Below are positions 1,202 through 27,800 of a DNA stretch of 40,152 nt, piece after piece; positions within the stretch are counted from its first letter, which is position 1, and every line of letters starts with the position of its first letter. The translations under genes were made by a program, and so were the position numbers. Under the pieces are notes generated by a model that did no database searches, was not told where the DNA came from, and was given only the letters and a program-made list of their open reading frames with translations. Origin of the DNA: an uncultured candidatus Brocadiaceae bacterium (GTDB lineage Bacteria; Planctomycetota; Brocadiia; Brocadiales; Brocadiaceae); NCBI GenBank assembly GCA_964355695.1, contig CAYHFB010000001.1:1-40152 (forward strand). The letters are read 5' to 3'.

Positions 1202-3001
1202 TTATACGGCTGTTAGTAAAAAGTAATATTCAGTTCCATTAATCCAAATCCTTTGTTTATGTGTAGAAGCTACTGCAATTCCAGATTCAGGAGCTTGTTC
1301 TAAGTATAAGCCAAGCGTAGCATTAGCACTACCTGCACTACTGTCTTTTGCAAATATTTGAATAGTATCAGCTGGGGCGGTTGTTGGAGCTGTACCTATT
1401 TTAGTTGCAAATGTATTAGTTCCTGATGTACCTATTGTTGCTGCTCCTAAAAATAAATTTGCAACATTATCCCCTCTAAATTTACTAATTCCATTAATTT
1501 GATAATTGTAAATGTCCCCACTATACCCACTTGCAGCATTTACCGCTAATACTGTACCTGATGAGCTACCTGTAAAGAACCCTGCTGTAGCTCCATCAAA
1601 AGCACCTGAACCAAGAGATACTAATCCATAGTTAGCAGAGGCTGTAGGGGCTACATTTACTAACACTCTACCTGCTGCAACATCTATTGCCCTAAAATCT
1701 GCCGCCGCTGTTAATGTTGGATTGATATATAGCCCACGACTGATACCATTTGCTCCGCCTGTTTGGTTGATGGTTGGTTTTATAACCGTTGAATTAAATA
1801 CAGCAGTTCCGCTTGTAGGTTTGAAATTAACAACATTTTGAAACCCATTTACTGTTCCGCTTGTATTTGTATATCCATTACCAAAGTTATTAAATTGAGT
1901 TAAACTGATTTGTACACCTTCTGTATATGAATTAGCACTTTCTATTTGAACACCACTACCTGATTTATTAAAACCTCCAGCACCACCAGAAAGTTGGAAT
2001 CCAGCATCATAATTAGCTGTAATTCCTCCTTTATTTGTCAATTCTCCATATTCATCTTGTTTTAAATATACAACCCCTCCTTTTTGAAGGTTTATTAATT
2101 CCGAACTACTACCAGAAGCTAAGTTCCCTGCTATTAAAGTACCTGCGGCTGCACCTGTAAAAAATCCGCTTGTAACTCCATCAAATGCTCCTGAACCAAG
2201 AGATACTAATCCTGAGTTGGGGGTCGAAGTTGGGGCTACTCCTATATGAAGTGTTGATAGAGGTGAAGTTGTTCCAATACCCACATTGCCAGTAAAATAA
2301 CTATTCAACGAATTATATGTAGTACCGAAGCGAGCCACTAATCCCTGCTCATTAATGATATTCATTCCCCAATACATTCTAAATGCAGTCCCAGGATTAG
2401 TCCCATCGTTGTAACTATTTGATAAATAAGTTGAGTTATCACCCAGATATAGTTTCGCAACATCCCCACTTGACCAAGTTGCGTCAGGTTTAATTAACAC
2501 AGTTCCAACAACTTCAAACTTTTCACTCGGACTCGCTGTCCCTATCCCCACATTCCCATTATTAAGAATCCGCATAGCTTCGGTTGCACCATTATTTCCA
2601 ACATTGAAAATAATATCTGCACCAGTAGCACCTACACCAGAAGTAGGTTGTAATATTAATGTTGAAGTTGTGCCTGTACCACCTATTATTTTAGGAACGG
2701 TTGCCCCTGTTATAAACGTTGGACTGGTCTGCATTGCCACCACCGTTCCGGTTCCTGTTATCGTGTATTCCCCAAGCGTTCCGGCGTTGTTATACAATAT
2801 CCGTGTAGTTGCTCCGCTTGCTATTGCGGTTGTTCCAATTGTTAATGGCGACGACAGCAAGTCGCTTATATTGGCAAATGATATTAACTTATTCTGATTG
2901 GCTGGTAATGCCTCATCAGGGTCTAAGAATAATAACTTTGCCACTAAGGGGTCAACTCCCGACCCGTCTGATGTATTTTTTGAACTCCAAGGTGCTCCCA
3001 T
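1202..3001 (-). CDS. Gly/Thr/Ser-rich tail fibre-like protein with internal repeats
   Basis: 599 aa. It contains repeated GNVGIGTASP / GNVGIGTTSP motifs and a duplicated ~45-aa block: APTSTPNSGLVSLGSGAFDGVTSGFFTGAAAGTLIAGNLASGSS versus APTASANYGLVSLGSGAFDGATAGFFTGSSSGTVLAVNAASGYS. The composition is beta-rich and low-complexity, as is typical of phage fibres. Confidence 0.75.
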   Translation of the reverse strand: MGAPWSSKNTSDGSGVDPLVAKLLFLDPDEALPANQNKLISFANISDLLSSPLTIGTTAIASGATTRILYNNAGTLGEYTITGTGTVVAMQTSPTFITGATVPKIIGGTGTTSTLILQPTSGVGATGADIIFNVGNNGATEAMRILNNGNVGIGTASPSEKFEVVGTVLIKPDATWSSGDVAKLYLGDNSTYLSNSYNDGTNPGTAFRMYWGMNIINEQGLVARFGTTYNSLNSYFTGNVGIGTTSPLSTLHIGVAPTSTPNSGLVSLGSGAFDGVTSGFFTGAAAGTLIAGNLASGSSSELINLQKGGVVYLKQDEYGELTNKGGITANYDAGFQLSGGAGGFNKSGSGVQIESANSYTEGVQISLTQFNNFGNGYTNTSGTVNGFQNVVNFKPTSGTAVFNSTVIKPTINQTGGANGISRGLYINPTLTAAADFRAIDVAAGRVLVNVAPTASANYGLVSLGSGAFDGATAGFFTGSSSGTVLAVNAASGYSGDIYNYQINGISKFRGDNVANLFLGAATIGTSGTNTFATKIGTAPTTAPADTIQIFAKDSSAGSANATLGLYLEQAPESGIAVASTHKQRIWINGTEYYFLLTAV

Positions 3002-3013
3002 TTTTATTTATAA

Positions 3014-3148
3014 TTAAGTTTCATAATCCATTTCTACTCCATTTTCAAATTCCATATTAACAAGGTTCTCAAAGGACATAGCATTTGCTCCGCCACCGCC
3101 ACCAGCTATTATGTTGTTCCAAATGTATATACCTATAGTCACTTGCAT
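3014..3148 (-). CDS. Possible small ORF (44 aa) filling the gap between two fibre-module genes
   Basis: Below the ORF-track size cut-off. My translation is MQVTIGIYIWNNIIAGGGGGANAMSFENLVNMEFENGVEMDYET, then TAA at 3014-3016. It is the only same-strand ORF in the 153-nt gap 3002-3154. There is no other support. Confidence 0.25.
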   Translation of the reverse strand: MQVTIGIYIWNNIIAGGGGGANAMSFENLVNMEFENGVEMDYET

Positions 3149-3154
3149 TTCATA

Positions 3155-3625
3155 TTACCAATTTGCATTTACTAAACTTGCTGTAGTTCCCGTTGACCAG
3201 ATTTTAATAACCTGAACGGGCAAAAAGAATCCCGCTGACAACCCAGGATACGTAGAATCATCACCGCCTGCTGTTGTAACCCTGACATCCCCCGCTCCTC
3301 CAATAGATAATATACACCCATCGTTACTCAGTCCATCGTAAACCACATAGTCCTCCGGTGCATAAGTAAAAATATCGGCATTTAAAGTTAGCGTTGTTTC
3401 GCTATCTACCGATACCACAAGGGCTGTTTCTTGCCCTGTGGTGTTATAGACAATATCTCCCTGTTTTACCCCGTCTGTTATAAATGTTGCCCCCGAATCA
3501 ACGAGTTTATTCGCTGTTACAGACGTGCTTTCCCCCGAAGATACTTCCGCAGGGAAAGGAATATTTGAATTGTCCGAAGGGATCACTCTTAACGAACGAC
3601 TTACTTGTAATTTTTGAGATGCCAT
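3155..3625 (-). CDS. Virion or tail-associated protein. It carries a ~58-aa module that also occurs in the protein encoded at 30534..31472.
   Basis: 156-aa ORF whose start shares one base with the upstream stop. Residues 39-96 (NKLVDSGATFITDGVKQGDIVYNTTGQETALVVSVDSETTLTLNADIFTYAPEDYVVY) align at about 55% identity with residues 125-182 of the 312-aa protein. Confidence 0.65.
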   Translation of the reverse strand: MASQKLQVSRSLRVIPSDNSNIPFPAEVSSGESTSVTANKLVDSGATFITDGVKQGDIVYNTTGQETALVVSVDSETTLTLNADIFTYAPEDYVVYDGLSNDGCILSIGGAGDVRVTTAGGDDSTYPGLSAGFFLPVQVIKIWSTGTTASLVNANW

Positions 3626-3831
3626 TAGTTTATGTTTTTATATGGAAATTTTGTATTTAAAAGTTCTTTGCGCTCCTCACAGTTACATGGACTATCTAAC
3701 GCCTTTGCTATTTTATCAACAACAAACTTAATGCCCGTTGCTTTGGTGAATTTCTCAATCGTATCTCCTAATCCGCGAGAAGGAACTACTTTGTGAACAC
3801 CTGGTGCAATATATTGTAGTGTTTCGGTCAT
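3625..3831 (-). CDS. small conserved-looking protein (GLGD...TGI...CxC...R..LLN pattern), function unknown
   Basis: 68-aa ORF with a one-base overlap to its neighbour at each end, which suggests translational coupling. Confidence 0.55.
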   Translation of the reverse strand: MTETLQYIAPGVHKVVPSRGLGDTIEKFTKATGIKFVVDKIAKALDSPCNCEERKELLNTKFPYKNIN

Positions 3832-4628
3832 TATACGTTCCGGCCTAATGTTGTGTTAAAGGCAGTTACAGCTACCCAGTAATTATATATTTCACCTGCC
3901 GTTAAAGCGTCACCTAAAAACATAAAGGCTCTTCGTGTATCTTGAAATTGTATTGGCGTATCGCTACCATCGTTCATTGCACCAAAATAAAAATTTTTAG
4001 TATTTGCTGCAATACTTGACATTGTTTTAGTTCCCGCCTGACCGTCGAGACCAGTATAATAATTCATAGTGGTGCTGTTTATACGTGAAACTATTTTAAA
4101 CCCTAAAATCCCTGATACGGCCACTGCGCTTAATGTTGCAGATGAACCAATCATAAAACTCATGTCTCCATTATTGTCAAAAGGAGCTAAGAAGAAATTT
4201 TGAATACCCGCAAAAGCACCCTCTCTCGCCAGTATTTGCGATGTGTTTTCGTTATAATAAACCCCCGTACTTGCACTGTCTACCGCCAAACTTACGCTTT
4301 GTTTAAGAAAAGAATTTGCATATGCCGTTGTTCCGTCAGGCTCTGCTCCTGAACTGTTATGTATCCATGAACCACCCCAAACAAGTCTAAATGCCGCATC
4401 TAAATCGCGAGGGTCTTTTAAGTTCCACTTATGCTTTGTAGCTGTTCCCCCCAATAGAGGATATACTGCCTTCATTTTTGACCAGATATTATACTCTTTA
4501 AGCGACTTAGTAAGCGTATTAACCGCTTCTTTTTGGGTTTCGTCGGTTATTTCAGCCGCAGAAATATACGCGAGGGCATCGCTATCCCAATACCCCAAAG
4601 TCATTCCCATTGCTCTTCTTACACTCAT
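3831..4628 (-). CDS. hypothetical tail-fibre-module protein
   Basis: 265-aa ORF with an ATGA overlap to the upstream gene. It sits between two fibre-like genes. I recognise no catalytic motif. Confidence 0.65.
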   Translation of the reverse strand: MSVRRAMGMTLGYWDSDALAYISAAEITDETQKEAVNTLTKSLKEYNIWSKMKAVYPLLGGTATKHKWNLKDPRDLDAAFRLVWGGSWIHNSSGAEPDGTTAYANSFLKQSVSLAVDSASTGVYYNENTSQILAREGAFAGIQNFFLAPFDNNGDMSFMIGSSATLSAVAVSGILGFKIVSRINSTTMNYYTGLDGQAGTKTMSSIAANTKNFYFGAMNDGSDTPIQFQDTRRAFMFLGDALTAGEIYNYWVAVTAFNTTLGRNV

Positions 4629-5705: not shown

Positions 5706-5962
5706 AACACCAATACAATATCCCGATAAGAACAAATGGTAACTGTTTTTTGTTCTAATATCATGGAAAAACTATTGGTCTTGTCAAAAAGAACAATATC
5801 GCCTTTTTTTACTTTATCTATTTCATCGCCTACAGCTAAGACTTCTGCCTTATGGTATCGCATGGCAGACATATCATCACCGGAAAGAACTAAGCCTGAT
5901 GAAGTTTTGACTTCTTCGATTATGGCACTTAAAAGAATATATTTTGCTATTGGTTTACTCAT
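5702..5962 (-). CDS. groES: GroES/Cpn10-like co-chaperonin
   Basis: I use the ATG at 5960-5962 (MSKPIAKYILL...), which forms an ATGA overlap with the GroEL stop; the ORF-track start at 6022 lies inside GroEL. 86 aa. The pattern is Cpn10-like: IAKYILLSAIIEEVKTSSGLVLSGDD...KAEVLAVGDEIDKVKKGDIVLF, with a mobile-loop-like G-L-V-L-S-G. Confidence 0.75.
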   Translation of the reverse strand: MSKPIAKYILLSAIIEEVKTSSGLVLSGDDMSAMRYHKAEVLAVGDEIDKVKKGDIVLFDKTNSFSMILEQKTVTICSYRDIVLVF

Positions 5963-7548
5963 GATGCCCTTGCTATGGTTACGGCTACACTTGTACTTAA
6001 TATCGTGCATGCAACTGCACATGCGTTTTGTAACGCTACCCGTGTTACTTTCATCGGGTCTGCTACTCCCATTTCGATAAGGTTTCCATATTGGCCTGTT
6101 TTTACGTTGTAGCCATGTCCGAACACATCCTTGCGATTGCCGTAAATATCAACCACACTCAAATCGGCATTTGCCAATACCTGAACAAGCGGAACTTTTA
6201 TTGCTGAAAGAACTATATCAAGTGCAATAGAATATTCCTTGCTCGTGTCGCTTTCAGGAGGATATTGTAGGTCTATTTCAAACAATGCTTTCCCGGCACC
6301 ACTCACTACTCCTTCTTCCAAGGCACTTTTTACAGCGCAGACAGCATCCTCGACCCGGTCATATATCTCCTTTTGCTCTAAATCGGTATTGCCCCCTACA
6401 TAAATAACCCCTATGCCACCAATTAATCCGGCAATCCTTTCATTGATAAAATCCTTGTCTGCTTTTTTATTGGTTATTTCTTGTGAGTTTTTTAATTCAC
6501 CTATCCTTTGATTGAGTTTTCCTTTATCTCCACTACCCGAAACTATTACAGTTTTATTTTTGCCTACAATCACTTTTGCGGCAAGTCCTAAATCAGTCAT
6601 TGTAATATGGCTTAAATCATCCCCCGTTTTTTCAGAGAAATAAGTCGCCCCTACACTCAGGGCAATATCTTCCATCAACTCATGTGATTTATAACCGAAA
6701 CTTGGAGGAGTAATAACACATGCCGATATGTTTCCTTTCATTACATTGCCGGCTAAAGTGTTCACCAAATTAGTATGACAAGGAGCGATAATTAGCAGTT
6801 TCTTTTTGTTTGAGATAATATCTTTAAGGATAGTTTCTATTTGTAGGATATTGGATATTTCACCATCACAAACCAATATATTTACATTCTCCATAACACA
6901 TTCGTCTTTCTCTCTATTGTTTATAAACATCGGAGAAGAATACCCTCTGTCAATTTTTAATCCGTTGGTTACATCGGAATATGTTTCGCTGCTTAAAGAC
7001 TTTTCTACCGTGACTATTCCGTCCTTACCAACACCTTTGTAAGCCTCTGCAATTATTTTTCCTATCGAATCGTCCCCGTTGGAAGAAATTGTTGCTACAT
7101 CTAAAATAATGTTTTCATCGCAGGGAATAGACTTTTCCCTGAGTTTTTCGACTACCGTTTCAACAATTTGTGTCATGTATCGAAGCACCTGAGTTTTGTT
7201 GATTCCTTCGGTTATACGCTTGTTTCCTTCAAGTATTAATGCTTCTGCAAGAACGATTGAAGTTGATGTGCCATCGCCAGCACTTGTAGCGGTGCGTTCG
7301 GCTGCTTCCAAAAGAATTCTGCAAGCAAGGTTCTCAACAGGGTCATTCAGAGAAATAGACTTTGCGACAGTAAAACCGTCCTTGGTATTTGTAAACCCAT
7401 GTGTTTGCAAAGGAGATTCTAACAGACACGTTCTGCCGTATGGACCAAGAGTAGAGGCCACCGCCTTACTCATTACAGAAACACCTCTCATTAAGGATTC
7501 GCGGCACTCTTCGCCAAATAGTAGTTCTTTAATTAGTTCTTGATTCAT
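5959..7548 (-). CDS. groEL: GroEL/Cpn60-family chaperonin
   Basis: 529 aa. The N-terminus aligns by eye with bacterial GroEL: LGPYGRTCLLE...TKDGFTVAKSISLNDPVENL...AGDGTSTSIVLAEAL, compared with LGPKGRNVVL...TKDGVSVAREIEL...AGDGTTTATVLAQA. The C-terminal equatorial region includes GVVSGAG. There is no C-terminal Gly-Gly-Met repeat; the protein ends ...VAVTIARAS. Confidence 0.93.
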   Translation of the reverse strand: MNQELIKELLFGEECRESLMRGVSVMSKAVASTLGPYGRTCLLESPLQTHGFTNTKDGFTVAKSISLNDPVENLACRILLEAAERTATSAGDGTSTSIVLAEALILEGNKRITEGINKTQVLRYMTQIVETVVEKLREKSIPCDENIILDVATISSNGDDSIGKIIAEAYKGVGKDGIVTVEKSLSSETYSDVTNGLKIDRGYSSPMFINNREKDECVMENVNILVCDGEISNILQIETILKDIISNKKKLLIIAPCHTNLVNTLAGNVMKGNISACVITPPSFGYKSHELMEDIALSVGATYFSEKTGDDLSHITMTDLGLAAKVIVGKNKTVIVSGSGDKGKLNQRIGELKNSQEITNKKADKDFINERIAGLIGGIGVIYVGGNTDLEQKEIYDRVEDAVCAVKSALEEGVVSGAGKALFEIDLQYPPESDTSKEYSIALDIVLSAIKVPLVQVLANADLSVVDIYGNRKDVFGHGYNVKTGQYGNLIEMGVADPMKVTRVALQNACAVACTILSTSVAVTIARAS

Positions 7549-7760: not shown

Positions 7761-10700
7761 TCAATTCCCGTACGCCCTTTTTTTGATTGCGTCCAACTTT
7801 TCTTTACGTTCTTTTTTAAGCTGCTTCAATCTTTCTCTATGAGGGTTGTCTCCGTATTTTAATTCATATAAAGCAGGGTTTAGTTGTTTTATGAATTCTT
7901 TGTCGGGAGAAGAAGAAGTGGTTTCTTTTTTATTTGTGCCCTCCTCTGCATTAATATATTCAACCATGCCGCTCTTAAACCACCCGTCAATAAAATCTTC
8001 TGCTTTTGGGGTTTTGCTTCTTTGCTCTGATCCAGAAATGCCACGATATATACTTTCAATATCGCGCGACATTCTCCATGGTAAAGGGGTGTTGAATTGA
8101 CTTCCAATGGCCTTACCTACTTTTGCCCCGCCTTTACCTTTATCTATCTCGTCTAAGCCTTTTATTAGGTTAGCTGCATCGTCATAAGCCGGAACTTTGT
8201 TGAATGTGGAGGCCAAATAATACGCAAGTTCATCATTTTCTAATGCTGTCGCTACAATAACCCATTCGGCAATGCCAAGATTTGCGTATTTTTTTGCCCA
8301 TGGATTTTTCTGTAACCATTCGTCATAATCATCGTCTGCCCCCGTAGCTTTAAATGCGATATATGTAAGCATTGAAGCTATGCCACCAAAAAGCATCCGT
8401 GCGTTTACGGCTCTGCTTTTCAGTCTATTTGTAAGATTGTTTTCTAAGGTCCTGCTATTCGCCTCGTCCGATAGGTCTATTTTTTTTGGCTGTGCTATAT
8501 TATAGAGGGCAGATATAAAATCAATTCCCGCTTTTTGAGCTTTTAAAACTGTCCAGTTAGTACCTCCTCCAACAAACGGATTCAAAATATTCCGTGTTCC
8601 GATTTGCATTATTGTGTACCATACCGCACTCCCCCATTCTTTATTTTTAGTAGCCTGTTTTAAGTTTGTTTCTATGCGACTATTTCCTGCCGTTAAAAAG
8701 GCTGAAATTGGATTATTAGCTTCATGCCCCATGTCATAACCTGCACTTGTATAAGCTGATTCATAAGCAGCCTTTAATTGCTTGGTCGTTACTTTGCCGT
8801 GCTGTAATAATGCTTGTCGGACAATATCGTTTGCCAACCTGTCAATGCTTTGTTGATTATCGGGAACTATTTGGGTTTTGCCATTGATTTTATCAATGGT
8901 TTCTTTTGCTAATACTTGTGCATCGGTAAAGTTTTGGCCTGTGAGTGTTTCCGAAATATAGCTTATTGCATCCCGCTTAGTCATTGCTCCGTTAGGATTA
9001 CTTGGGTGCGTTAAAATACGTGTTAAGTTCTGAACAAAATACATATCTGTAAGTAGTGATTTATACATAGCGTCCATAGCCTCCAAATGTCCACGTCCGA
9101 TTAACTCCGACATGATAGTATGATACAACTTACTGTCAGATTGCTTATTTATGTAGTCATCTAATTCGCCCTTGGTAATAAATGCCGAATTTGTTTCGCC
9201 AAAAAATGTAGCCCCATTCTGATAAATGTCCTTCATAATAGTTGTCATCATTTTTCGCCTGTGCTTCCTTAGTTCGGGAGAGCCTAACCCTTTTGCTAAC
9301 ATCGCTTGCAATGTGCTAATAGACGCTTGTGTTAACCCTGACAAAGGGTTTTCTATTCTTTGCTTGACAGTATTTAGCATCATCCTATTTGATACCTCCC
9401 AATATGCTTGCACAAACTTAGCAACCCTTAACTTGCCGGCTCCCTTTTGGTTTTTTAATTCCTCGTTTAGCGTTATCCTTATTTTGTTTTTAATTTCATT
9501 TATTCCGTGTTTTAGATTAAATGGATCTATTCTGCTTTCTCCAATTTTTGCACTATACAATTCTGATAACCCGCGAGCCAACTCTTTTAGTTTAAAAAAT
9601 GTTCCTTGACTAACATCGCTAATTCCCAATAGCTTATTAATAAGATAATCATAGGAATCAGGGTTTTGCTCAAACAGCCCGTAATTATACATTTCAGCTA
9701 ATCTCTGTGCGGCAGTTTTTTGATCTGCTGTTAATTTTTTTTGATTTCCCTTGTTTAATTCATTTGCCGATTTTTCAATAATAGACTGTCGCAAGCTATT
9801 GTATTCTTTCTGCAAAGCATCTGACATCCGCGCAATTTCACCATCGCTATATCCTTTGTCTTTAAGATAATTGGTTACATTGGCTTCTATGTTTTCGATA
9901 CTACCTTCTTCGCCTGCCAGCTTCTTCCAGTCAAGAATTGTTCGCTTTTCTTTCCCTGTTTTAGTTGTTACGGTTATTTCCCTTCCGAATCCTGCTTCGA
10001 TAAGTGCATCTTTTACTAACTTGCTTTTTATAGGGTCAATTTCATTTAATACTGCTAACCTTGCTTTCTTTTCCGCTTTAAGGGATTCTATTTGTGTGGT
10101 TGATAGGGGGTTCTTTTTACCTTCCGATTCGGCACGTTTCCCGTCATTTATTTGCTTGTCAATTTTTTCAATTTCATTTGTAAGTCGAGTTACAATAGCT
10201 TTTTCTGATTTGTCAATATCAGGGTCAATTTCATTTAATACTGCTAACCTTGCTTTCTTTTCGACCTGTAAACTTTTTAGTTCATCGTCTGCAACATCCT
10301 CTTTCCTTGCTATTAATTCACGCTTTTTGTTTTCGATTTGCTCGTTGATGTCATCAATGCTTTTCTTTATTCTTTCTTTCCTGTCTTGTAATCGTTGCTC
10401 TGGTGTTTTGGGTGTGTTTTGAGATTCGATTTCATTAAAGAAGTCAATGGCAGCCTGTTTGTTTTTTGCTTTCATTTCACCTTTTTCTACTAACTCTGAG
10501 ATAGTAGATTCTATGCTATTCCCTTGTTCTAATCCCTTTGCAACCTTTTCTGCTATTGCATCACGTTTTGCACTTTCAAAAATCAGGTCATACTTTTTGG
10601 CTACCTTTTTTCTATTTCCCTCCCGTATTCTATTAGCTTTTTCCTTAACTTCATCAGGAACATTGTTTATTTCAAACTCTTCTGCTTCCTTGTTTATTGA

Positions 10701-13700
10701 GTTTATATCTGATTCAACCGATTTTACAGTTTTTTTCCTTTGTGTAGCTTCGGAAGATGTAAACATTTCTTCCGTAACTTCGGTTATATCATATCCTACC
10801 CGTGCCATTTGTCGCAAAATACCATACCCGGTTGCAATGGCAGCAGCCCTCTGTTGTTTTGTAGAAATATCCCTTACTAATTTAAGTTGTTTTTCTAAGG
10901 TTAATTTATTTGATGGATTTTGTGCTATTTGGCGTTCTAAGTCCAATTCGAGAGAAATAAGAATCAAAGACCTTGTGTCTATATCCTTTGCCTGCACGTT
11001 TTCATCAAGGTACGCAAGTAGTTTGCTTACATAGTCGCTTCCAAATTCTACTTTGGCTGCTTCCACAACATCGAAACCGTGCTGTATCGCATCTAACCGA
11101 ACTGTGCGCTGATATTCTTTTTCTTCGGAGGTAAGTTCTCGCTTTGTTTCGCGTTCTATATTATTTAGGGTTTCTCTTATTTCGTCCGATTTAATATCTT
11201 TATTAACAAGTGAGGCAAAAGTATCAGTAACTTTTTCAACTATCGGCTCTGGCGAAACAGGCTTCGAAGCGGCTTCTTCCTCAATATTATTCGCCTTGTT
11301 AAACAAATCTTCAAGGTCTTTGTCGGTAACTCTGTTAAGATATTTTCCTGACACTCTCCGCATCTCGGCAATAAACGCTTGTACGCCTTTTCTTGCATAC
11401 CCTATGGCAATTTTACTCATTGCCGCAATCACTTCGGCAGGGATAGTGGTAATGTCGTACAGCTTGCCACCTTTACCTGTGATTAAATCTTTAAGTTGCT
11501 TCTTGCCTTGTGCTATTTGTTGGTCGGGGGTTAAGCCTTTTACCGATTCTCCCAAAGTTACTTTTGATTTGTCAAATACAACAAGCATACCTTCATCAAC
11601 ATCCCCGCTTAAATATGCCGAATCATACCCTTTGTCTTTTAAGTTAGCTGTTACTTCCTCTGCAAGATACTTCCCAAACCCATTAGCGTATGCCACTTCA
11701 AGACCTGCATCATCTAAACTTTTAGCTTCGGCAAATTCAGGATAATCGTTTATTTCAGGATTATCTTTGGCAAACTTTTCTTTTGCTCCTTGCAATGCTT
11801 CGTTTTGAAGAGTTATAAGTTCATCTGCGTTTTTTAATTGGTATGGGTTTTCAATGTCAACGGTAACAGACTTTACATCTTTTGCCATGTCAGCATATCT
11901 GTTTACGGCTTCGGTAGAAATAAATGTTCCTGCCATTTCGTTGTTACCCATGCCTGTTCCTATCGTACGGGTAAGTGGCTTGGATTTAATTTCGGAAATT
12001 AGCTTGCCTTTTTTCGTTGGCTCATTAACAATGTTAGTTCCTTTTGGTTCATTTGCTATGTTATTAATTTGTTCTTTTAATGCTTCTTCAACTTTTGCCC
12101 GTTTAAATTCAGGAAACATCCATGCTTTTTGATTATTGTTCCACGTTCCCCCAAGTTCTTTAATTTTGTCTTTTATTGCAAAAGTATCGCCGCGTACAAC
12201 AAATGCTTTTTCGGAGATGCTTTCTAATTGAACTCCTTTTGGTTTTTCGGGTTTAACTTCTCTTTCCTGTTTAGCCTCAGCTAATCCTTCTGCGGATTCT
12301 TTTATCTTCTGCCTGTCCACTTCTGACAATTCCCGACCTGCAACAATGCTTCTGATCGTTTCCTGTTTTTCGTCAGACCGCTTCTTCCGGTTTGCATCTG
12401 CCATATTCCCCTCAAAGAAATACGAGTTAATCTTTGCAGAGCTTTGAGTATTCCTTCTGCTTACCCTTCCGTAAAGTTGCTCGGTTTTGTTCCCGGAATA
12501 TTCACTTGTGGCAATATGCATTACCCTTGGCTTATCTCCAACCACATCATCTAAATTAATGCCTGTGCCGCCACTCTTAGTAGTCATAAGAACTACATCG
12601 GCTTTGCCTTGTTGGAATTTTTCGTTTTCTTTTATGCCCCCGTAAATTCGGGCAACAGAGATTCCTTCCCCAACAAGTCTTTTTGCAAGTTGGTGGAGCA
12701 ATGTTTCTTCTGCGGCTATTCCTTTTTCGTAAAACCCGTATTTACTGTCTTTTGTTCCGGCCTTGATAACATGTTTGCCTGAAAATTGAGCCACAACAAT
12801 ACTTTTCTTTCCTTCGGCTAAATCCTTTTTAACAGCATCGTACATTGTCTGTACTTTATCCTGTTCGTTTATCTTATCAAGATTGGCTAACTGAGCTTTG
12901 CGTTCTTCATATTTGAACTTATCAACGGCTTCTTTTGCCATACTGTAATATTGACCTGTTCCTGCCTCATAGTCTTTTTTGATTTTGTCGAATAACCCAT
13001 TAAACGCAAGTTTATTCCCTAAATCAGCTTTAAATGCACCAAACTCACCACCCTCTCTTTTCGGTGAAAGCATCGAGTTTACAATCCTACCAATGGCAAT
13101 ATTGTCAGCATTATCCAATCTGTTTGAATGTATTAAATCAATTTCATTGACTTGTTTTTTTGCCTTATCAGACATTTGAACCTGTTTGGCCTCCATTTCT
13201 CCATAGAAAGGATATTCACGCCTTAAAATACCTCCACCTTTTACCACCTCGCCTCTCAAAGCATCGGTCTTTTCGTAGTAGTCTTTCGGCCCCGTTGATG
13301 TTTTGGCGACAGCGTACATTTCACCATCCTTGCCTTTATGGTATTCAATATCTACACCTACTTCTTTCTGAATTTCTTTCGGTGTTCTGCCTGTTAGTTG
13401 AGAAAAAAAGAATATAGAATGTTCAATTTTATCATATGGAGTAGCAGTAGCAAATACATTGTGCTTTGACTCTACTTTTGATTGCTGAATTGACCTTGCA
13501 GCCATCGGGTTTTTAAGATTATGCGCTTCATCATATATAGCTACACCATAATCCCCCTTACCAATTTTACCTGCTGTCAAATCATAGTATGTTCCTATTT
13601 CCCATTTATCTGTATCAGAAATATCTATTCCTAATGCTTTGGCATCTTTGGCAAATGAATCATCTATGATTGCTTGGCTTTCGGTAACTATAAGAGTTTT

Positions 13701-16700
13701 TTTGCCCGTTTTTTTCTGCATTTCTGCGCCCATAACGAGTTGTTCTCTTGTTTTGCCTACACCAGCACCATCAGCAAGTAAAAATGCCTTGTGGCCGTTG
13801 TCAAAGCGGTCTATTGCAACATTAGCACCGAAACGCTGTGTTTCGTCAATGTCGTACTTCCCGGCTACAACATGCTCTTTTTTTGGAGTTGGTAGATTTG
13901 CTTCATCTGCAATTCTAATCGGGGGTCTTCGTCCGCCCGTTCCTCCACTTGCTCCAATAGGGGTTTGTCCGCCCTGAATATTTTGTGCTGCTCCCTTTTC
14001 GGGTACTTGTCCATTATATCCTGTGGAAGATGGATCGAATCTGTTAATTTCTGTGTCATTTGATATTGATGTTAAAACTTCTGTTGATAATATATTATTT
14101 GCCTTGAAATGTTTGAAGGCTTCCTTTAAATAAGGTATCCATTCATTCATTCCCTTTTCAGCAAGGTATTTTGCTATGTCTTCAATTTTATAATAACCTA
14201 CTTTAACTAATCTTCCTACAATCTCCGAAAGTTTATCTATTTTAGATAAACCGCCAACTGTAAAATCGGGTTTACCTAAGTCACCTAATAGGTCGTCTAT
14301 GGCATCAAGTTCAGCCTTTATTTTTTCGGTGTTACGTTCAAAGACAATTTTATCTTTTGGGGTTTCTCCAATCAGTTTGTCTGCTTCTTGGATTGGCTTT
14401 TCGACACCACTTTCAGGAACGTCTCCTTGCTTTTCGGCTTCATTGCGGATAAGATTAGCGATAACTTTAGGGCTTCCTTTGAGTTTCTTGTCGAGATACC
14501 GCCCAATGATGTCTGACTTGTCTGTCTGTTTGCCTGCAAAGAGGTCAAATTTTCCTGCTTCTTCATTGTATGAATTTATAAATTGTTTAAAACTTTCTTC
14601 CTTCCCTAATGCCATAGCAACTGCCAATTCTGATGCCGTTACATTCTTTTCAACAAGCAAATCTTCCTGTATGGCATATGCTTCTAATGTCTGCCCGTAA
14701 TTTCTTGCTTCCTGATTCATTTCAATAGCCCTCTCAACTTCATTTTGAAGGCTATTATCTCCCATTGCCCTATTTTTTATTAATGGAACTAAGGCTGCCA
14801 ATAATTTATTCTTAATGTCTCCATTGCCTTCTAATCCAAGCGTCCTGATAGCTTTTTCACTTAAAGCAGAACCTAACATCAATGACTTTAAAAATTCTAC
14901 ACCTTCTTTGGTTGCAACCAATCTTGATACATCAAAATATCGTGGCATTTCAGCAGAAACAAGTATTTTGTTGTCAAGAAACAGCTTCATTATTTCTTTG
15001 ACCTTCGACGGAGTACTTGTAACGTCACTCATGTTTTCAGCATTGCCAAAAATCAAAAACAAACTTTCCCGTACAGGATCTGTGATAGTTTTGCTAACTT
15101 CAATTGCCCTGTCAATAGGGGATTTTTCCTTTTTCTCTGTTACATTAAACTTTTTAAAAGTTTCGGTGGTGTAAGGCATATCGGTATCTGTTTCAAATAC
15201 CAGCATTGGATTTTTAACAGTATCAATTTCGTTGGGGTCAATACCATATGCTTCTGCGTTCTCCTTTAATGCTGCTAAATATTTAGCATCTGTACCATTT
15301 TTAGCAGCAAGTTTCCTTGACATTGTGCGGTTGTTCCCGTCTAAAACTATTCCATCTTTAGAAACGACTGGTGTTTGGTCAATGGCCTTATCATTGAGTT
15401 CTCCGGCTATTTTAATTACTTCTGATTGTGCGTTTTTGTCTTGCTTGTAATCCCTGTCGTTTGGAGTTGTTCCATCTTCCCGTACAGGGAAACCAACTGT
15501 TTGAGAAAACGTTTCTTCGTTGTGTGAAGCCAATACATCATCTGCCGAAACAACTTTGTACCGTCCTGTTATTTCTTCTCCATTGGCTATCGTCTTTGTT
15601 CGCTTCCGTCCTACAAGTTGGTTTTTCCCTTCTTTATAATTTTGCGTACCTACTTCTCTTTTCTTGATTTCTTCAAGTTCCTTTTCGGCCTTTTCTTTCA
15701 AAGCCTTTTTTTCGGCAATTTCTTTTGACCTTTGTTTTCGCTTTTCTTCGGTTGGCTTGTTATAGATAAACTGGAACTTACCTTCTGTTGTTTTTTCGGC
15801 ATATCCTAATCTAACCAACCTCTCCCAAAACGGTTTTCCTGCACTATCTGATAGTCTTTCAGACGACCTAAGAGGGTATCCTGTTTTTTCAATACTCTCT
15901 TTGTTTATTTTAATATAAAAATCCGTGCCAATCCCTTGTCTTTGAAGTCCCATTGGAACGATTGCCATGTGTATTATATATCCGTCTTTATTAGGTTCAA
16001 CAGAAAATACAGAATCATCGCCCCATCCTTTTATTTTATACGATATTATTTTAACACCATCCACTATCCGTTCTCCCGACATCTCAATCTCTGGCAACAC
16101 TTCGGCTTCTTTTTGGGTTTCTTTTGGTGTTTCTGCTTTGGGTGTTTCTTTGAGGGATTGTAATTTATGATCAACTGCCTGATTTATTTCTGGCCGCAAC
16201 CCCCCCGGCAATCCTTTTGCCGCTTCTGAAATATCGTTTAATTCTGTTTTGTCTGTACTTACATCTGCAACCGCCCTAAGAATATCCTTCTTCCTCATGG
16301 CATCCTTGGTTTCATTAAACTCTTTGCGCCATGTACCTTTACCTTTACCATCTGCAACCTGCGTAGGATTATTTTTTAACCCATGTTCCGCATCGGCTAT
16401 ATATTTTTTATATTCATCACTATTGTATATTTCATCCAACGCCTTTTTTCTTTCGGCATCATTTTCAATTAAGCTGGCTTTATTAATTTTATTTTCAATC
16501 ACATCTCCCCCTACACCAACACTAACCTTTTCTACTGATTCGGTCTGTTCAGTCTTTGTTTCGGTATCAGTTTTCTTGTTGACTGGCTTAACATCTGCTG
16601 TAACGTCTGTAGCCTTTGTAGTCGGCTTAACAACATCAGTTTCAATTGGTCTTTCGGTCTTAGGTTTTTCATCTAATTGTTCTTTAATTTTGTTTAAAAT

Positions 16701-23112: not shown

Positions 23113-23919
23113 TTATACTTTCGGGAATGATACCATTGTTTCTGAAGAAATCACGAATAACTCTATTTTGGAAGTGCTATTATTTTCAAGCTCTATGGTG
23201 CAAAAGTGGCCCGCCAGCCCTTGGCTCTCTGCCGTTGTGTTTTTCATAAACAGCATAAAATCAGTTTGATTTGTTGGTACACTTCCTCCTGTAACAGTCG
23301 TATTAACCTCTATATAATTATCTCCGTTTGGGTAATCCTGAACCACATTTGTAATTAATCCGCATAACACAGGTGTTGTATAAGGTGGAACGGCAAAGTA
23401 CAAGTAATCTCCAACGCTTATAATAGAACCAATTGAAATTAGCGGACTGATAGAAAACTCGATATGTGTTGCTGCCGCTGCACCTGTAACTGCCAAACTC
23501 CTTCCTATTCCACTCAAACTTCTCAACGCATACTCGTCAGGTGAAGCAGGCACAACGGATCTATTTCTTATAAATGCAAAGTAACTCGCTTCTTTTAAAG
23601 CAAACCAAGCACTCTCTATAAAAAACCCTTCCTGTAAATCCGTGTATAAATCGGTTACATCCCATGGGCTATCTCCTATCAAAACAATCGTTTTGAAAAG
23701 TTTGCTGTCCAAAGGGTTTTCATTGAATACTGTCTTTATAGTACTTGGATATTGAACTCCGTAATATTTGTTTCGGGTCTCATTCGTGTTGTGCCTGTAA
23801 AGGTTTCCTCCTTTGAAGGTATAAAAATAGTTATTCATGCCAATCATCATATCGGGTTGATATGAGTAGAAAGAAGGCCATCCTTGTATTGGCGGTGAAA
23901 AAGTTAGTGTCGCTTCCAT
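23113..23919 (-). CDS. hypothetical virion/tail structural protein
   Basis: 268-aa ORF in the tail module. It is beta-rich (GWPSFYSYQPDMMIGMNNYFYTFKGGNLYRHN...). I recognise no catalytic motif. Confidence 0.65.
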   Translation of the reverse strand: MEATLTFSPPIQGWPSFYSYQPDMMIGMNNYFYTFKGGNLYRHNTNETRNKYYGVQYPSTIKTVFNENPLDSKLFKTIVLIGDSPWDVTDLYTDLQEGFFIESAWFALKEASYFAFIRNRSVVPASPDEYALRSLSGIGRSLAVTGAAAATHIEFSISPLISIGSIISVGDYLYFAVPPYTTPVLCGLITNVVQDYPNGDNYIEVNTTVTGGSVPTNQTDFMLFMKNTTAESQGLAGHFCTIELENNSTSKIELFVISSETMVSFPKV

Positions 23920-24864: not shown

Positions 24865-27800
24865 TTACGGACACCCGTTTACGTCAAATCTCATAGTTAC
24901 AATACCGCTATTTATGATTGGTATTACCGAAACACAGAAAAAATAAACTCCCGGTGTAAATGTGTTTAATATCGGACTACCACCGCAAGGCGTGTAATCT
25001 ATCTCTGCGGTTTCTGTTATTACTATTTCAAAATACCAACATTCACCAACAAAATTATCACAACCACAGGCACTTATTGTCTGAATAGTACCACCTCCTG
25101 TCTCAAAGAATGGAATATAATCACTATCAGAACACAAGAAGTATCCCTGATATGCCGCTACTGTTAAACTTAATATTTCTCCTGTATAGCAGTCTTTATA
25201 ACTTACTGTTCCTGCGCCACTTGATATAAAATACTCATTACATTCTGTCAAACATGCTTCACACTCACAACAAGCCTCTACAGAAGATACAGAATAACAG
25301 AGTGGTACACCAAGCGAAGTTCTGTAATCCCAAATAAGATACATATAACTTCCTCCTCCCGGCATGGTGAATTCAGCATAATTATTTGTTCCGCCCCCTT
25401 GATTCGGAGTGGCTACATTTGCAACTGCCAATAACGCTGCAATATCAGTTGGGGTATTTGCATAAAGCGTATTTGACCTTAAATATAGGAATCTGTCTTT
25501 TGATGTGTCGAAATTATAGGTATCAAAATCAAAGTTATTGCAAATCATTCTTACGATTGAACCTACCGTTGGAACATTTCCTGTACCGACATATCCATTT
25601 GTTTGGGTATATTGAGAAACCAATGGATTGTCTGTGCCTGACGCAAAAGCAACCAAGGTTGAAGTTGTAGGCGAAATATATGTTCCATCAATATAATTGT
25701 ATTGATTGTGAACAAAATCCCCTGCGTCTGAATCGTTGGTAACGCCAACTTGTATCATCATTAATTCTACCTGAACAGGACAACCTGCCGTTACCTCCAA
25801 GCGAATATCACCTGTAGAAATTATAGTTATTGTAAGCGTTTCTACAAACTGCAAATCTTTATTAATAATTACTAACCCGTCATCTGAAACCGAACCTGAT
25901 GATGTGTCCGTTCCGTTATACGATACTATTACTTCAAAAGGAGTTCCCGTTGGTGTAACTATCCATGAAATTACTGTTTCACCAACTGCCTGTCCTACAT
26001 CAACACAATAGTCTATATCTTCATATCCATACACATTGAATGTTTGTGACATTCCGCAAGCGATACATTGCTCTTCTACAGGAAGTGAAATGTCATTTGT
26101 TGTCAGAACATACTCATTCATGTAAGGGTCGTATCCTCCTAATTTCTGTGTATTGAAATCGGTTATGAACATATCTCTGAACCATGTTCTCATTCCAAAC
26201 TCTGAAATAACTGTTAAGGCTTCGTTGTAAGAACTTCCTCTTAATTGGAGAACTGCACCTCTTTTTGCGTCTGTAAAAAAGGTATCATATCCCCAAACTG
26301 TATAACTTTCAGGGCTTGAACTTATGCCAAATTTTTCTATTCGTGCTATTTGTGTTCCGAGAATTTCGGGAATAGATGTAATTGCCCCGCCTGCCGCTGC
26401 ATCACTTAATAGGTTTTTCCCTGCTAATACATACGATACTTTGTCTTCCTGTAATACTCGAATATCTGTTTCTCTGCCGTCAATAATTTGTATAGGGCCA
26501 AATGAACTTTCTAATGGCTTGTAGTTGACCAAACCAAGATTAAATTCATTTAGCTTGTTTATATTCGATTCATCGTTGTAAACTCCGCTATATGTTAAAT
26601 CTGCAAATCTGTTCGCTTCTTTATAGTCTTGTGCCGAAACCGATGTTACCCTGTTTCCAAAGTTGAATGTTTGTCCTGATACAGAATCACGTATCTTGTA
26701 GCTTTCCGCTCCGTTGCCAAAACAAAAACAGTTATAAAACCCTGTATCTATTATTGCAGGAGTGGAAGTGTAAAAACTTTGGTCTTGAACATTCCCTTGA
26801 TGGTCTCCGTCAATTATCGCAAAAGATAAATCGTTTTCAAAGAATACGTCAGGTAAGGCGTTTGAAGGTTCGGTTTCAAAGATTAACATGTTCTCAGCTC
26901 GGAAAACTTCAATATTTACCCATATTCTTGATGCCTTGTTTACCGTATTTCCGCACGACCTTACACCATTAACGGCTAAATATATTTGACCTGATGGCAC
27001 ATATTCCTGAAACTGAAAATGCCCATCTAAGTTACAGTCCAATAAGTTTGTATAAGGATATAGTCCCGGAATAAAATAATTGATAACATTTCCTGTCCCT
27101 GTATTTAGAGTTGATGCAATATTTTCTCCATCCCACCACTCCATAAAACCATCATAAGTTTGAGGCGATACAAATACTCTGTCGTAGGTATATTTTCTTT
27201 CTTCGCAAGCCGACCCAATACTTGTACCGTTACGCTCAAATCTAAAAAACAAATGTATTTTGCTGCCTGCTGGAATATTATAGTCATATACCCCAGGCGA
27301 TGTTTCTATATTTACAGGATAGTAAACAACAGGACATTGATTCTCATTCCGCTGTGACTCATACCTCTGCCCCGGTGCTATGACATCGGTATCTGTATTT
27401 ACAGCAGCAAAACTGTTCGGGTTGATTTTCATATAAACGCCAGCAGGAACGGTAAAGTTTCCATCAGGATTTATGAAACCAGATTTTTTAACTTCCTTTT
27501 CCAACACCGTTGCATAGGCGCAATTCTGTACTGGGCCTGATGAATCTGCCTTAACTATCAACCTATCTCCTACTTCTACCTTTTGAGCGTTTTCTCCTTC
27601 CAATAAAAAGTAAACAGAATTTGTATCAGGGTCATCAAAATAAATGCTCGTATAAACGGTTTCATAGTTTTCTTGGTCAGCTTTTATTACAAATTTATAT
27701 CGTGTAGCCCAAGCAGGCGCAATGTTATCATACGGAATAGTAACCTGAATAGAATTCTTCAAAGCAGAGTTTCCACATGGAACATGTACGTTGTTACTTG

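Follow-up and report, generated by a model that had tools for sequence, protein, structure and literature searches.

A 3,936-residue podophage protein in the ejection-protein slot, a probable carrier of exchangeable polyvalent effector modules

Introduction

In the model for the ejection protein gp16 of phage T7, the N-terminal part (gp16-N) is periplasmic and two segments, transmembrane helix I (TMH I) and the C-terminal TMH II, lie in the inner membrane, with a large cytoplasmic hub between them; the hub binds DNA and assists the entry of the leading part of the genome, and infectivity depends on a basic C-terminal tail (PMC8954989). Polyvalent proteins, a second class of phage product, were described by Iyer, Burroughs, Anand, de Souza and Aravind in 2017, and the ddrB-ParB domain, named after a head protein of phage P1, is restricted to phage-type polyvalent proteins encoded beside virion genes (PMC5512222). 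Here we describe a single open reading frame (ORF) of 3,936 codons whose product, which we call the giant, appears to combine features of both. It lies in a 40,152-nucleotide stretch of DNA (contig CAYHFB010000001.1, positions 1 to 40,152; hereafter the window) from an assembly assigned to an uncultured candidatus Brocadiaceae bacterium (GCA_964355695.1).

Delivery of large proteins together with phage DNA has been described in several other systems. The Dar proteins of P1 are co-ejected with the DNA (PMC12810830). In phage phi24B, gp47 is a polyvalent protein of 2,811 amino acids (aa) that was detected in virions, is invisible in the electron cryomicroscopy reconstruction and has been proposed to be an ejection protein (bioRxiv 10.64898/2026.04.10.717836). 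The cargo proteins encoded downstream of the muzzle in PhicrAss001 were likewise detected in virions, and it has been proposed that they unfold partially in order to be ejected (PMC10172136).

Our analysis indicates that a marine flavobacterial podophage probably has three internal virion (ejection) proteins, of which the giant is the largest, and that the same chain is also a polyvalent effector. What stays constant among its relatives is the gene slot, with one or both of the end modules, and the domains in the middle are swapped, lost or multiplied; the giant is thus one version of a frame with exchangeable cargo. From this organisation we infer virion presence, ejection, topology and enzyme targets. 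An earlier reading of the letters alone (the original prediction) had proposed an ejection protein with accreted enzymes. The polyvalent domain set, the slot and the accretion were all recovered here; no sequence homology to T7 gp16 was found.

Architecture of the giant

The giant ORF is a genuine single contiguous gene. Its translation contains no internal stop, and in the ORF listing every opposite-strand ORF inside it is 228 aa or shorter. The window has a G+C content of about 39% with strand skews that are uniform along its length, and a stop-free frame of 11.8 kb in such DNA cannot be chance. The ATG overlaps the stop codon of the upstream 512-aa ORF by one base (TAATG at 19573-19569). 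The uninterrupted frame and this overlap had both been read in the original prediction, as had several smaller elements that we find on inspection: a duplicated N-terminal motif (AKYPQYKDM / AKYPEYKDM, aa 16-43), a P/T/E-rich linker (a P/T/S/E/Q-rich stretch, aa 56-145), Gly/Ala-rich hydrophobic stretches across aa 312-612, and K/E-rich coiled coils (aa ~3024-3155) with an exact repeat, in which EKKARLAVLNEIDP occurs twice (aa 3104 and aa 3167) and is identical over 42 nt.

Searches with the giant as a whole returned little. No family matched in a PHROGs profile search, a PADLOC scan gave only noise, and megablast and tblastn against GenBank phages found nothing apart from one ParB match, described below. 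The hydrophobic part of the N-terminal core had no match in GenBank phages even at E<=1 when it was used alone, and single-sequence searches of the PDB with four segments of the giant were also negative. No independent copy of the gene was obtained, and no contig of our collection is recorded as encoding the exact window protein. We mapped the giant by local BLAST against all fetched relatives, by Pfam searches on tiles and by a full HMMER scan of 1.84 billion representatives; P and L numbers below denote proteins and loci of the collection, and coordinates are given in Table 1.

The accretion of cargo is directly visible at the N-terminal end, since the N-terminal core (N-core) corresponds to a complete gene in the same slot of a relative: it is 44% identical over 853 columns to the entire 966-aa protein P0001 of contig L003. 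Residues 151-253 of the N-core are kept in the giant of the uncultured podovirus MW202828. The hydrophobic part of the N-core is also seen in P0002, P0018, P0019, P0021, P0140, P0146 and P0186, and weakly in elemoA gp21; the Gly/Ala-rich segments are a candidate membrane-inserting region, by analogy with TMH I of T7 gp16. The tandem motif that precedes the core is common to the N-termini of otherwise unrelated Gly-rich proteins of 556-642 aa (P0003-P0006, with 44-72% identity, and P0010), and other relatives have different tandem motifs in this position. Near the end of the core, a low-complexity-looking linker containing VLPRQQGETGKTGSEREGVGQQQQGEE (aa 717-773; 17253-17423) has a counterpart with 54% identity in P0026, a protein of otherwise different build, and resembles a linker in P0077; this conserved linker could be a cleavage or docking site.

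One of the middle modules is of the ddrB-ParB type. The Pfam ddrB-ParB core matches aa 1330-1458 with 48.6 bits against a cut-off of 27.6 (E=1e-12 to 7e-14), so that the ParB/Srx-like module of the original prediction stands well above threshold, and the DGNNRT arginine box at aa 1411-1416 is intact. Over 40 other proteins, with lengths of about 750-2,400 aa, have this module at 34-51% identity, and the single tblastn match among GenBank phages mentioned above is to a 'DarB-like antirestriction protein' of Pseudoalteromonas phage Y7.

Downstream of the ParB module, all the motifs of an SNF2/Strawberry-notch-type superfamily 2 (SF2) ATPase are present: motif I (GAGVGKT, aa 1935), II (DEAH, 2014), III (TATP, 2042), V (GGTGINL, 2334) and VI (QLYGRVSRR, 2365), in columns that are invariant in a 10-sequence alignment. 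On a tile, AAA_34 passes its cut-off of 27 bits with a score of 29.0, with SNF2-rel_dom, ResIII and Helicase_C near their cut-offs. In a profile comparison with the PDB the region matches SNF2-family ATPases exclusively, with E down to 1.2e-8 (Fft3, ISW1, Chd1 and a Snf2/Rad54-family helicase). The SNF2-type helicase read earlier is therefore confirmed, and the tiled profile search that had been named as its check, run here with Pfam, produced matches for both helicase and ParB. Judged by its motifs, the ATPase is apparently catalytically intact. Its homologues fall under PF13872, PF13871 and PF00176; several are stand-alone proteins of 560-880 aa, and elsewhere the helicase is fused to ddrB-ParB, MuF or DUF5710. 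A weak DUF5710-like motif follows the ATPase in the giant, and one helicase homologue (P0067) carries PF18974.

Two further modules are assigned less firmly. Residues 975-1268 are shared with P0051 (38% identity), and they include the module that had been read as GNAT-like. An RQGIG motif is present, the acetyl-CoA motif of GNATs being Q/R-x-x-G-x-G/A; there is no Pfam match, and the best PDB profile match is a predicted acetyltransferase at E=0.13. The second module resembles ART-PolyVal, which accounts for one of the two globular modules previously left unassigned. Its Pfam match is below the cut-off (18.7 bits against 31.2, E=0.003). Among its homologues P0022, P0024 and P0027, the last has a precomputed match to PF18760 (ART-PolyVal), and the alignment conserves Arg 2534 (R/H in homologues) and GTFISTE, an S-T-E motif. 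An AlphaFold model built from four sequences has medium-to-low confidence (predicted local distance difference test, pLDDT, 69.5). Its best Foldseek match is chain B of the cyanophage A4 pre-ejectosome (E=6e-4), and the later matches, at E=0.03-2, are mostly of the ART fold (MbcT, RES toxins, tankyrases/PARPs and PE-like toxins). Pfam found no LPD domain in the giant, and neither Pfam nor profile searches found a methyltransferase domain.

The cargo is followed by a conserved super-module of about 1,100 residues (aa ~2785-3876; the C-module), in which a helical domain and coiled coils precede an all-alpha module of 700 aa. The C-terminal region of several hundred residues noted in the original prediction does contain a hydrophobic helix, and it proves to be part of this larger conserved unit. 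At least 273 protein clusters match the C-module at E<=1e-3, and 185 do so at E<=1e-30. They contain proteins of roughly 350-4,234 aa, of which the shortest look like fragments and nearly all full-length members have 1,000-4,234 aa. The module sits at or near the C-terminal end, although some members extend about 100-200 aa beyond it, and K/R-rich ends like that of the giant are found in most relatives. DWKKLAG, GHEANNP and NPFVGGGTNW are invariant among the homologues. The exact 42-nt repeat, together with the single EKKARLAVLNEIDP-motif unit in the homologues read, suggests a recent internal duplication in the window.

The predicted structure of the C-module consists entirely of helices (pLDDT 63.7, low to medium confidence). 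It has no fold counterpart in the PDB, and in BFVD it gives weak matches to giants of uncultured phages, one of which is named 'ART-PolyVal-like domain-containing protein'. Profiles of the N-core and the C-module matched no ejection protein, polymerase or enzyme in the PDB. A BurrH/TALE match of the C-module profile (E=2.5e-9) was set aside, as it is the sum of eleven weak matches of 1-6 bits to one 36-aa segment. That segment (aa 3214-3250; 9822-9932), of the form DWKKLAGEEGS..V..L..KGYS..I, aligns to every 33-aa BurrH repeat; it may be a single TALE-like helix-loop-helix unit, or the resemblance may be due to chance.

An N-core-like region and the C-module occur together in other, independent proteins, and what lies between them varies. 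A Pfam census of 15 C-module proteins returned ART-PolyVal (2 members), Kinase-PolyVal, DUF7178, LRR_5, GNAT and a weak CbtA-like match; within this set, ddrB-ParB and the helicase are each found in the window protein only. Conversely, the ParB module is present in many proteins that have no C-module of the window's type. The C-module was sought with phmmer and two local hidden Markov models (HMMs) in phi38:1 gp101, elemoA gp21, the MW202828 giant and P0007-P0052, and was not found. These proteins end in a hydrophobic helix and an acidic DDD/DEE stretch, a likeness that we regard as superficial because homology was not demonstrable by phmmer or HMM.

The gene slot and its cysteine-poor products

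In relatives of the window, a large gene follows a crass-type muzzle gene and two small genes of about 200-300 and 450-650 aa. This third gene is large in every case and differs widely in length, with products of 966 to 4,234 aa across relatives and metagenomic contigs. The window has the triple 257, 512 and 3,936 aa, and the same pattern is found at 9 other loci. The corresponding lengths are 302, 644 and 3,859 aa in MW202828; 200, 549 and 1,691 aa in Calle and phi38:1; 202, 450 and 3,694 aa in elemoA; 255, 482 and 966 aa in contig L003; 272, 526 and 2,188 aa in L008; 1,194, 492 and 1,558 aa in L009; 268, 564 and 2,003 aa in L010; and 249, 455 and 4,234 aa in L011. The large genes of L008, L009 and L010 carry ddrB-ParB, and those of Calle, phi38:1 and elemoA are labelled 'structural protein'. 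Precomputed matches to crAss_MUZ or crAss_MUZ_C are frequent in the large upstream tail protein of the metagenomic contigs. The positional equivalent of the 257-aa gene in phi38:1, gp099, has a weak full-length Pfam match to T7_gp14 (E=0.006).

The original prediction had placed the giant last of three consecutive genes that follow an adaptor-like and a nozzle-like gene. The giant is indeed the third member of a conserved small/medium/large triple downstream of a muzzle gene; the triple does not directly follow a nozzle-like gene, and the 257-aa gene is separated from that of the 1,586-aa tail protein by ORFs for a 309-aa protein, a 268-aa crAss_MUZ_C protein, an HNH endonuclease and a 155-aa protein.

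The content of the slot is not conserved. MW202828 is the closest phage by terminase, and its giant (L001, MW202828.1, 741-12320), which has no significant Pfam domain, has only aa ~151-253 in common with that of the window. We take this, together with the varied middle domains and the ParB modules without a C-module, as extensive domain shuffling within one gene slot. The label of the MW202828 protein, 'reticulocyte binding/rhoptry protein', is an evident misannotation. The 3,694-aa slot protein of elemoA (L005, 22843-33927) carries DUF3293 (E=1e-12) in place of ParB, helicase or ART, which by its sequence is a further case of cargo swapping.

The structural labels in this slot call for a separate remark. 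Those of the phi38:1 and Calle proteins lend indirect support to a place for the giant inside the capsid, and no sequence link from these proteins to the giant could be shown. For phi38:1 gp101 the GenBank record credits similarity with another phage, and the structural labels of phi38:1 in general (L006/L007, NC_021796) cite 'similarity to Cellulophaga phage phi18:1_gpNN' while using phi38:1's own gene numbers. Phage phi18:1 has a genome of 39.2 kb according to a 2025 paper (PMC11946311). Labels that carry phi38:1 numbers and are credited to a 39.2-kb phage are of uncertain provenance.

The three proteins of the window triple contain no cysteine in 4,705 residues (7761-21885), whereas the other 20 ORFs of the window have 84 in 8,403 (1.0%). 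At that rate, the chance of finding no cysteine in 3,936 residues is about 7e-18. The exclusion extends to the family: 35 C-module homologues of 1,372-4,234 aa (among P0074-P0213) have 0-2 cysteines each, and ParB-bearing relatives have 0 or 1 each. We read it as a mark of proteins that would unfold, thread a narrow channel and cross an oxidising compartment. This reading draws on general knowledge of secreted and translocated proteins and is not an established rule for ejection proteins.

In many ParB proteins of this slot, the only cysteine lies within the last one to four residues (..VEC, ..GECP, ..IRC, ..IECK, ..DCIV). These proteins are P0008, P0009, P0011, P0012, P0014-P0017, P0020, P0023 and P0025-P0027, with loci L009 and L010; the window giant has no terminal cysteine of that kind. 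In cyanophage A4, the C-terminal cysteine of the ejection protein gp27 is disulfide-bonded to Cys5 of gp26 (PMC12002296).

Phage context of the window

All large ORFs of the window are on the minus strand, and they include the terminase, portal and virion genes listed in Table 1; several further ORFs match PHROG 'virion structural protein' families. Queries with the terminase and the 1,586-aa protein retrieved 87 phage records, all from phages of Flavobacteriia: Flavobacterium 'elemo' phages, Cellulophaga phi38:1 and Calle (Pervagoviridae), and Tenacibaculum and Maribacter phages. The closest is MW202828, with a terminase identity of 64%. On this sequence evidence, we assign the window to the structural module of a podophage related to Pervagoviridae, Elemovirus and MW202828.

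Table 1. Features of the window, in order along the minus strand; aa numbers refer to the giant.
Feature	Position	Strand	Remarks
Large terminase	37419-39674	minus	PHROG profile
Portal	34968-37400	minus	PHROG profile
476-aa virion structural protein, probably capsid protein	32396-33826	minus	PHROG profile
1,586-aa tail protein	24865-29625	minus	PHROG profile, 'virion structural protein' family
268-aa ORF with crAss_MUZ_C domain	23113-23919	minus	Pfam E=7e-17
HNH endonuclease ORF	22274-23101	minus	strong PHROG matches
155-aa ORF	21876-22343	minus	phrog_17252
257-aa gene	21112-21885	minus	cysteine-free; Gly/Ala-rich N-terminus; phrog_13764 'virion structural protein'; presumed gp14-like
512-aa gene	19571..21109	minus	cysteine-free; phrog_35506; presumed gp15-like ejection partner
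Giant ORF	7761..19571	minus	3,936 aa; ATG start; 437.8 kDa; isoelectric point 5.8; zero cysteine
N-terminal tandem motif	19437..19556	minus	aa 6-45 (..KAKYPQYKDM..LAKYPEYKDM)
N-terminal core	16935..19430	minus	aa 48-879; presumed ejection/anchoring core
Gly/Ala-rich hydrophobic segments in core	17736..18638	minus	aa 312-612; hydropathy peak aa 411-443
Possible GNAT-like module	15747..16094	minus	aa ~1160-1275 (..RQGIGTDFY..); kept in P0051
ddrB-type ParB/Srx module	14292..15758	minus	aa 1272-1760; with conserved helical extension
SNF2/Strawberry-notch-type SF2 ATPase	12372..13874	minus	aa ~1900-2400
DUF5710-like small motif	12087..12224	minus	aa ~2450-2495; weak, E=0.03
ART-PolyVal-like domain	11532..11999	minus	aa 2525-2680
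Helical domain, start of super-module	10767..11219	minus	aa ~2785-2935 (..TLNNIERETKRELT..LELDLERQ..KQLKLVRDISTKQQR..)
K/E-rich coiled-coil region	10026..10754	minus	aa 2940-3182
Exact duplication of EKKARLAVLNEIDP (14 aa / 42 nt)	10221-10262 and 10032-10073	minus	aa 3104 and aa 3167
Conserved all-alpha module	7944..10025	minus	aa 3183-3876; DWKKLAGEEGS 3214, GHEANNP 3615, NPFVGGGTNW 3664, hydrophobic helix 3722-3745
Basic C-terminal tail	7764..7859	minus	last 30 aa; 11 K/R vs 5 D/E
Phage GroEL gene	5959-7548	minus	PHROG profile; directly downstream of giant

Four of the neighbouring genes deserve comment. The C-terminal domain of the crassvirus muzzle has a gene of its own here (268 aa), downstream of that for the 1,586-aa tail protein, and this sequence match links the tail tip of a non-crass podophage group to the crassvirus muzzle. 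The HNH ORF lies inside the tail/ejection block, between the muzzle-C-like and gp14-like genes, and is absent from the relatives inspected; it is probably a homing endonuclease insertion. The 155-aa ORF adjoins the gp14-like gene on its upstream side, and its positional counterpart in MW202828 has an N-acetyltransferase annotation. A small GNAT beside the ejection genes may modify ejection proteins. As regards the GroEL gene, the co-chaperonin cpn10 is a core gene of Pervagoviridae (PMC8776804). One may speculate that the phage chaperonin is needed to fold the giant or to keep it competent for assembly.

Discussion

The evidence assembled here has implications for how the giant might reach and act in the host. 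Its layout parallels that of T7 gp16, with a hydrophobic N-core, about 2,000 aa of soluble modules, and a C-module with hydrophobic helices and a basic tail; moderate hydropathy peaks fall at aa 411-443 and aa 3722-3740. We suggest that a few copies would be packed inside the capsid during assembly and that, at infection, the giant would leave through the portal and tail channel, largely unfolded, either in the company of the 257-aa and 512-aa proteins or once these have passed. Its Gly/Ala-rich N-terminal region and the hydrophobic helices near its C-terminus would then associate with the inner membrane, as proposed for TMH I and TMH II of T7 gp16, and the middle ~2,000 aa would refold on the cytoplasmic side, at the entry point of the phage DNA. 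These soluble modules are of types that work on DNA or NAD and would be sensible only in the cytoplasm.

There, the ParB-like and SNF2 modules may have as their target the incoming DNA itself or the host proteins that bind it. If P1 DarB/DdrB is taken as the model, the likeliest effect would be protection from restriction or other DNA-targeting defences, with help in DNA entry as an alternative; since ddrB-ParB is tied to a P1 head protein and to phage-type polyvalent proteins, protection of the entering DNA is what one would expect as the main function. The ART-like domain could modify a host target, or may by now be structural only.

Several observations weigh against an ejected polyvalent effector. 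In sequence and profile searches against the PDB, neither T7 gp16 nor another solved ejection protein emerges as a homologue, the giant has no PHROG family, and it has no similarity to phi38:1 gp101, the slot relative that GenBank labels structural. The hydrophobic segments are weak, with 19-residue Kyte-Doolittle means of 1.2-1.6, and are not classical transmembrane helices. We found no zincin peptidase that might release the modules (no HExxH or HDxxH, and no peptidase match in Pfam) and no peptidoglycan hydrolase. In the ART-like domain, the Q-E-G-E of the homologues reads D-E-G-M, and with the second Glu of the ExE motif lost, the window's copy may be catalytically impaired. A chain of 438 kDa would have to cross a narrow channel, which is plausible by the precedents of N4 gp50 and crassvirus gp47/gp50.

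Among the alternatives, we considered whether the giant might be above all a motor for genome import. Here the N- and C-terminal membrane modules would anchor the SNF2 translocase where the ejectosome opens into the cytoplasm, and the translocase would reel the genome in, with ParB as a clamp or end-binder and any anti-defence role secondary or absent. All the SNF2 motifs are intact and the closest solved relatives are double-stranded DNA translocases; moreover, the proposed topology puts the middle of the giant where the C-terminal part of T7 gp16 (gp16-C) sits, which binds DNA and is credited with the enzyme-like internalisation of the first ~850 bp (PMC8954989). We nevertheless consider this motor unlikely. 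Most proteins that share the slot and the frame have no helicase, and since the 966-aa version also suffices, these phages cannot in general depend on a motor; Iyer et al. read such helicases as counter-restriction or remodelling devices. A more elaborate version can be drawn, in which these flavobacterial podophages use a 'cargo-cassette' subunit of the ejectosome. The N-core and the ~1,100-aa C-module would form the membrane frame, and any insert between them would be threaded, unfolded and cysteine-free, into the cytoplasm at the site of DNA entry. In the phage of the window, the SNF2 module with its ParB clamp would draw the genome in as a motor driven by ATP, in place of the transcription-driven entry of T7. 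We hold this version, too, to be unlikely; if it were true, it would provide a protein-delivered motor for genome entry.

The giant might instead never be packaged and act late in the cytoplasm of the producing cell as a multi-enzyme, for instance in replication, in recombination, on packaging intermediates or against abortive infection, and adjoin the structural genes by operon layout only. ParB-like and SNF2 domains do occur in cytoplasmic phage proteins as well, and a phage GroEL gene lies directly downstream. This explanation is rather unlikely in view of the fixed third position in the triple and the translational coupling, and of the N-core being a complete gene in that slot in a relative. 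It would also leave the family-wide exclusion of cysteine, common to the two upstream genes, hard to explain, and phi24B gp47 provides a precedent for packaging in the virion.

Quite improbable, in our view, is a mainly structural role as an internal-core or DNA-organising protein, in which the enzyme-like modules are degenerate remnants and size and charge matter more than catalysis. Such a role would fit the missing catalytic glutamate of the ART-like domain, the long coiled coils and linkers, and the giants of similar length but without recognisable enzymes in the closest relatives, which suggest selection on bulk. It is at odds with the full conservation of the helicase motifs and the ParB arginine box, and with a ParB module that is 45-51% identical across many phages, indicating purifying selection; nor is bulk fixed in a slot whose products range from 966 to 4,234 aa.

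The slot after the muzzle and two small cargo genes is also that of the RNA polymerase-associated giants of crassviruses, and about 1,500 aa of the giant have no assigned function, so we asked whether it could carry a virion-packaged RNA polymerase hidden in these regions, like N4 gp50 or crassvirus gp47/49/50. This is very improbable: no RNA polymerase appears among the PDB matches by sequence or profile, no RNA polymerase family appears among the Pfam matches, and the C-module model is all-alpha with no double-psi beta-barrel. A scan for the D-x-D-x-D signature of a crass-type enzyme gave only two matches, which were rejected as neither is conserved in homologues. Finally, although no other single protein with all modules in the same order was found, an assembly or annotation artefact (a contig that is chimeric, or in which a frameshift error has joined several genes) is barely credible given 11.8 kb without a stop at 39% G+C, the undivided ORFs of 3,300-4,234 aa that occupy this slot in independent assemblies and in the cultured elemoA genome, and the co-occurrence of the N-core-like region and the C-module in other proteins.

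We thus return to an ejection protein that doubles as a polyvalent effector. If this is true, the giant is a natural example of podophages turning an essential DNA-delivery protein into a carrier of exchangeable effector enzymes, and the at least 273 clusters that share its frame, with ParB, helicase, ART, kinase, GNAT and leucine-rich repeat (LRR) cargo, would form a catalogue of candidate first-minute anti-defence functions in phages of marine Bacteroidota. Near-zero cysteine would then be a simple sequence signature for spotting ejected proteins. The analysis also defines two unannotated conserved modules that are candidates for family databases.

Comparison with known systems

Like the polyvalent proteins of Iyer et al., the giant joins many unrelated effector domains in one chain, combines ddrB-ParB and ART-PolyVal signatures with a SWI2/SNF2 helicase, and is encoded among late virion genes with predicted co-delivery with the DNA. 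The precedent of Aravind and co-workers invoked in the original prediction therefore applies, through ddrB-ParB, the ART-PolyVal-like domain and SNF2/Strawberry-notch among late virion genes. Unlike those proteins, the giant has no zincin (MPTase) hub peptidase, which is frequent in them and not obligatory, and no fusion to MuF or portal, and its effectors lie between an ejection-protein-like N-core and the ~1,100-aa C-module.

With T7 gp16, the giant shares its place as the third and largest gene of a small/medium/large triple in a tail-proximal late operon, a mostly alpha-helical make-up with moderate hydrophobic character in the N-terminal third and near the C-terminus, a basic tail and an expected unfolded passage. 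It differs in showing no detectable homology and no lytic transglycosylase, in having ATPase, ParB and ART modules that gp16 does not have, and in size: it is three times as large as gp16, and the gp16-like proteins listed by others span 609-1,337 aa (PMC8954989).

P1 provides the functional model, a large helicase protein that is packaged in the head and whose co-ejection protects the entering DNA, and the giant shares with it a DdrB-type ParB domain. In contrast to the podophage of the window, P1 belongs to the myoviruses. Its Dar functions reside in individual polypeptides whose recruitment depends on DarA/Hdf, and family searches of the window ORFs returned neither DarA nor Hdf. DarB consists of a methyltransferase plus a helicase of a type other than SNF2/Strawberry-notch, the type found in the giant. 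The phi24B protein gp47 is also a giant polyvalent protein of a podovirus. It is set apart, by description and with no common module identified, by its LPD5/LPD1/LPD38 domains and MuF-C metallopeptidase and by its origin in an enterobacterial lambdoid phage.

The order of muzzle, smaller cargo and giant cargo, together with a muzzle C-terminal domain, relates the window to PhicrAss001 (gp45/gp46 and gp47/49/50), although the crassvirus giants and N4 gp50 carry a virion RNA polymerase and none was found in the window giant. The pre-ejectosome of cyanopodophage A4 (gp26-gp29; PDB 9k3a) likewise contains ejection proteins of more than 1,000 aa with embedded enzymes. Those enzymes are peptidoglycan-degrading (transglycosylase, metallopeptidase), unlike the modules of the giant, and the match of the ART-like model to chain B is weak (TM-score 0.41 over the query).

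In the searchable literature, we found no description of a frame made of the N-core and the ~1,100-aa C-module, of the C-module itself, which also has no Pfam model, of the combination of ParB, SNF2 and ART in the gp16 slot, or of the family-wide cysteine exclusion. Slot ORFs of more than 3,300 aa are already public in MW202828 and elemoA, and the protein library contains further homologues of 3,300-4,234 aa. With polyvalent proteins, N4 gp50, crassvirus cargo, A4 and phi24B gp47 already known, the concept is established and the giant opens no new category. Its size is notable, yet the strategy that it exemplifies has been described in phages before, and it does not amount to a new kind of system.

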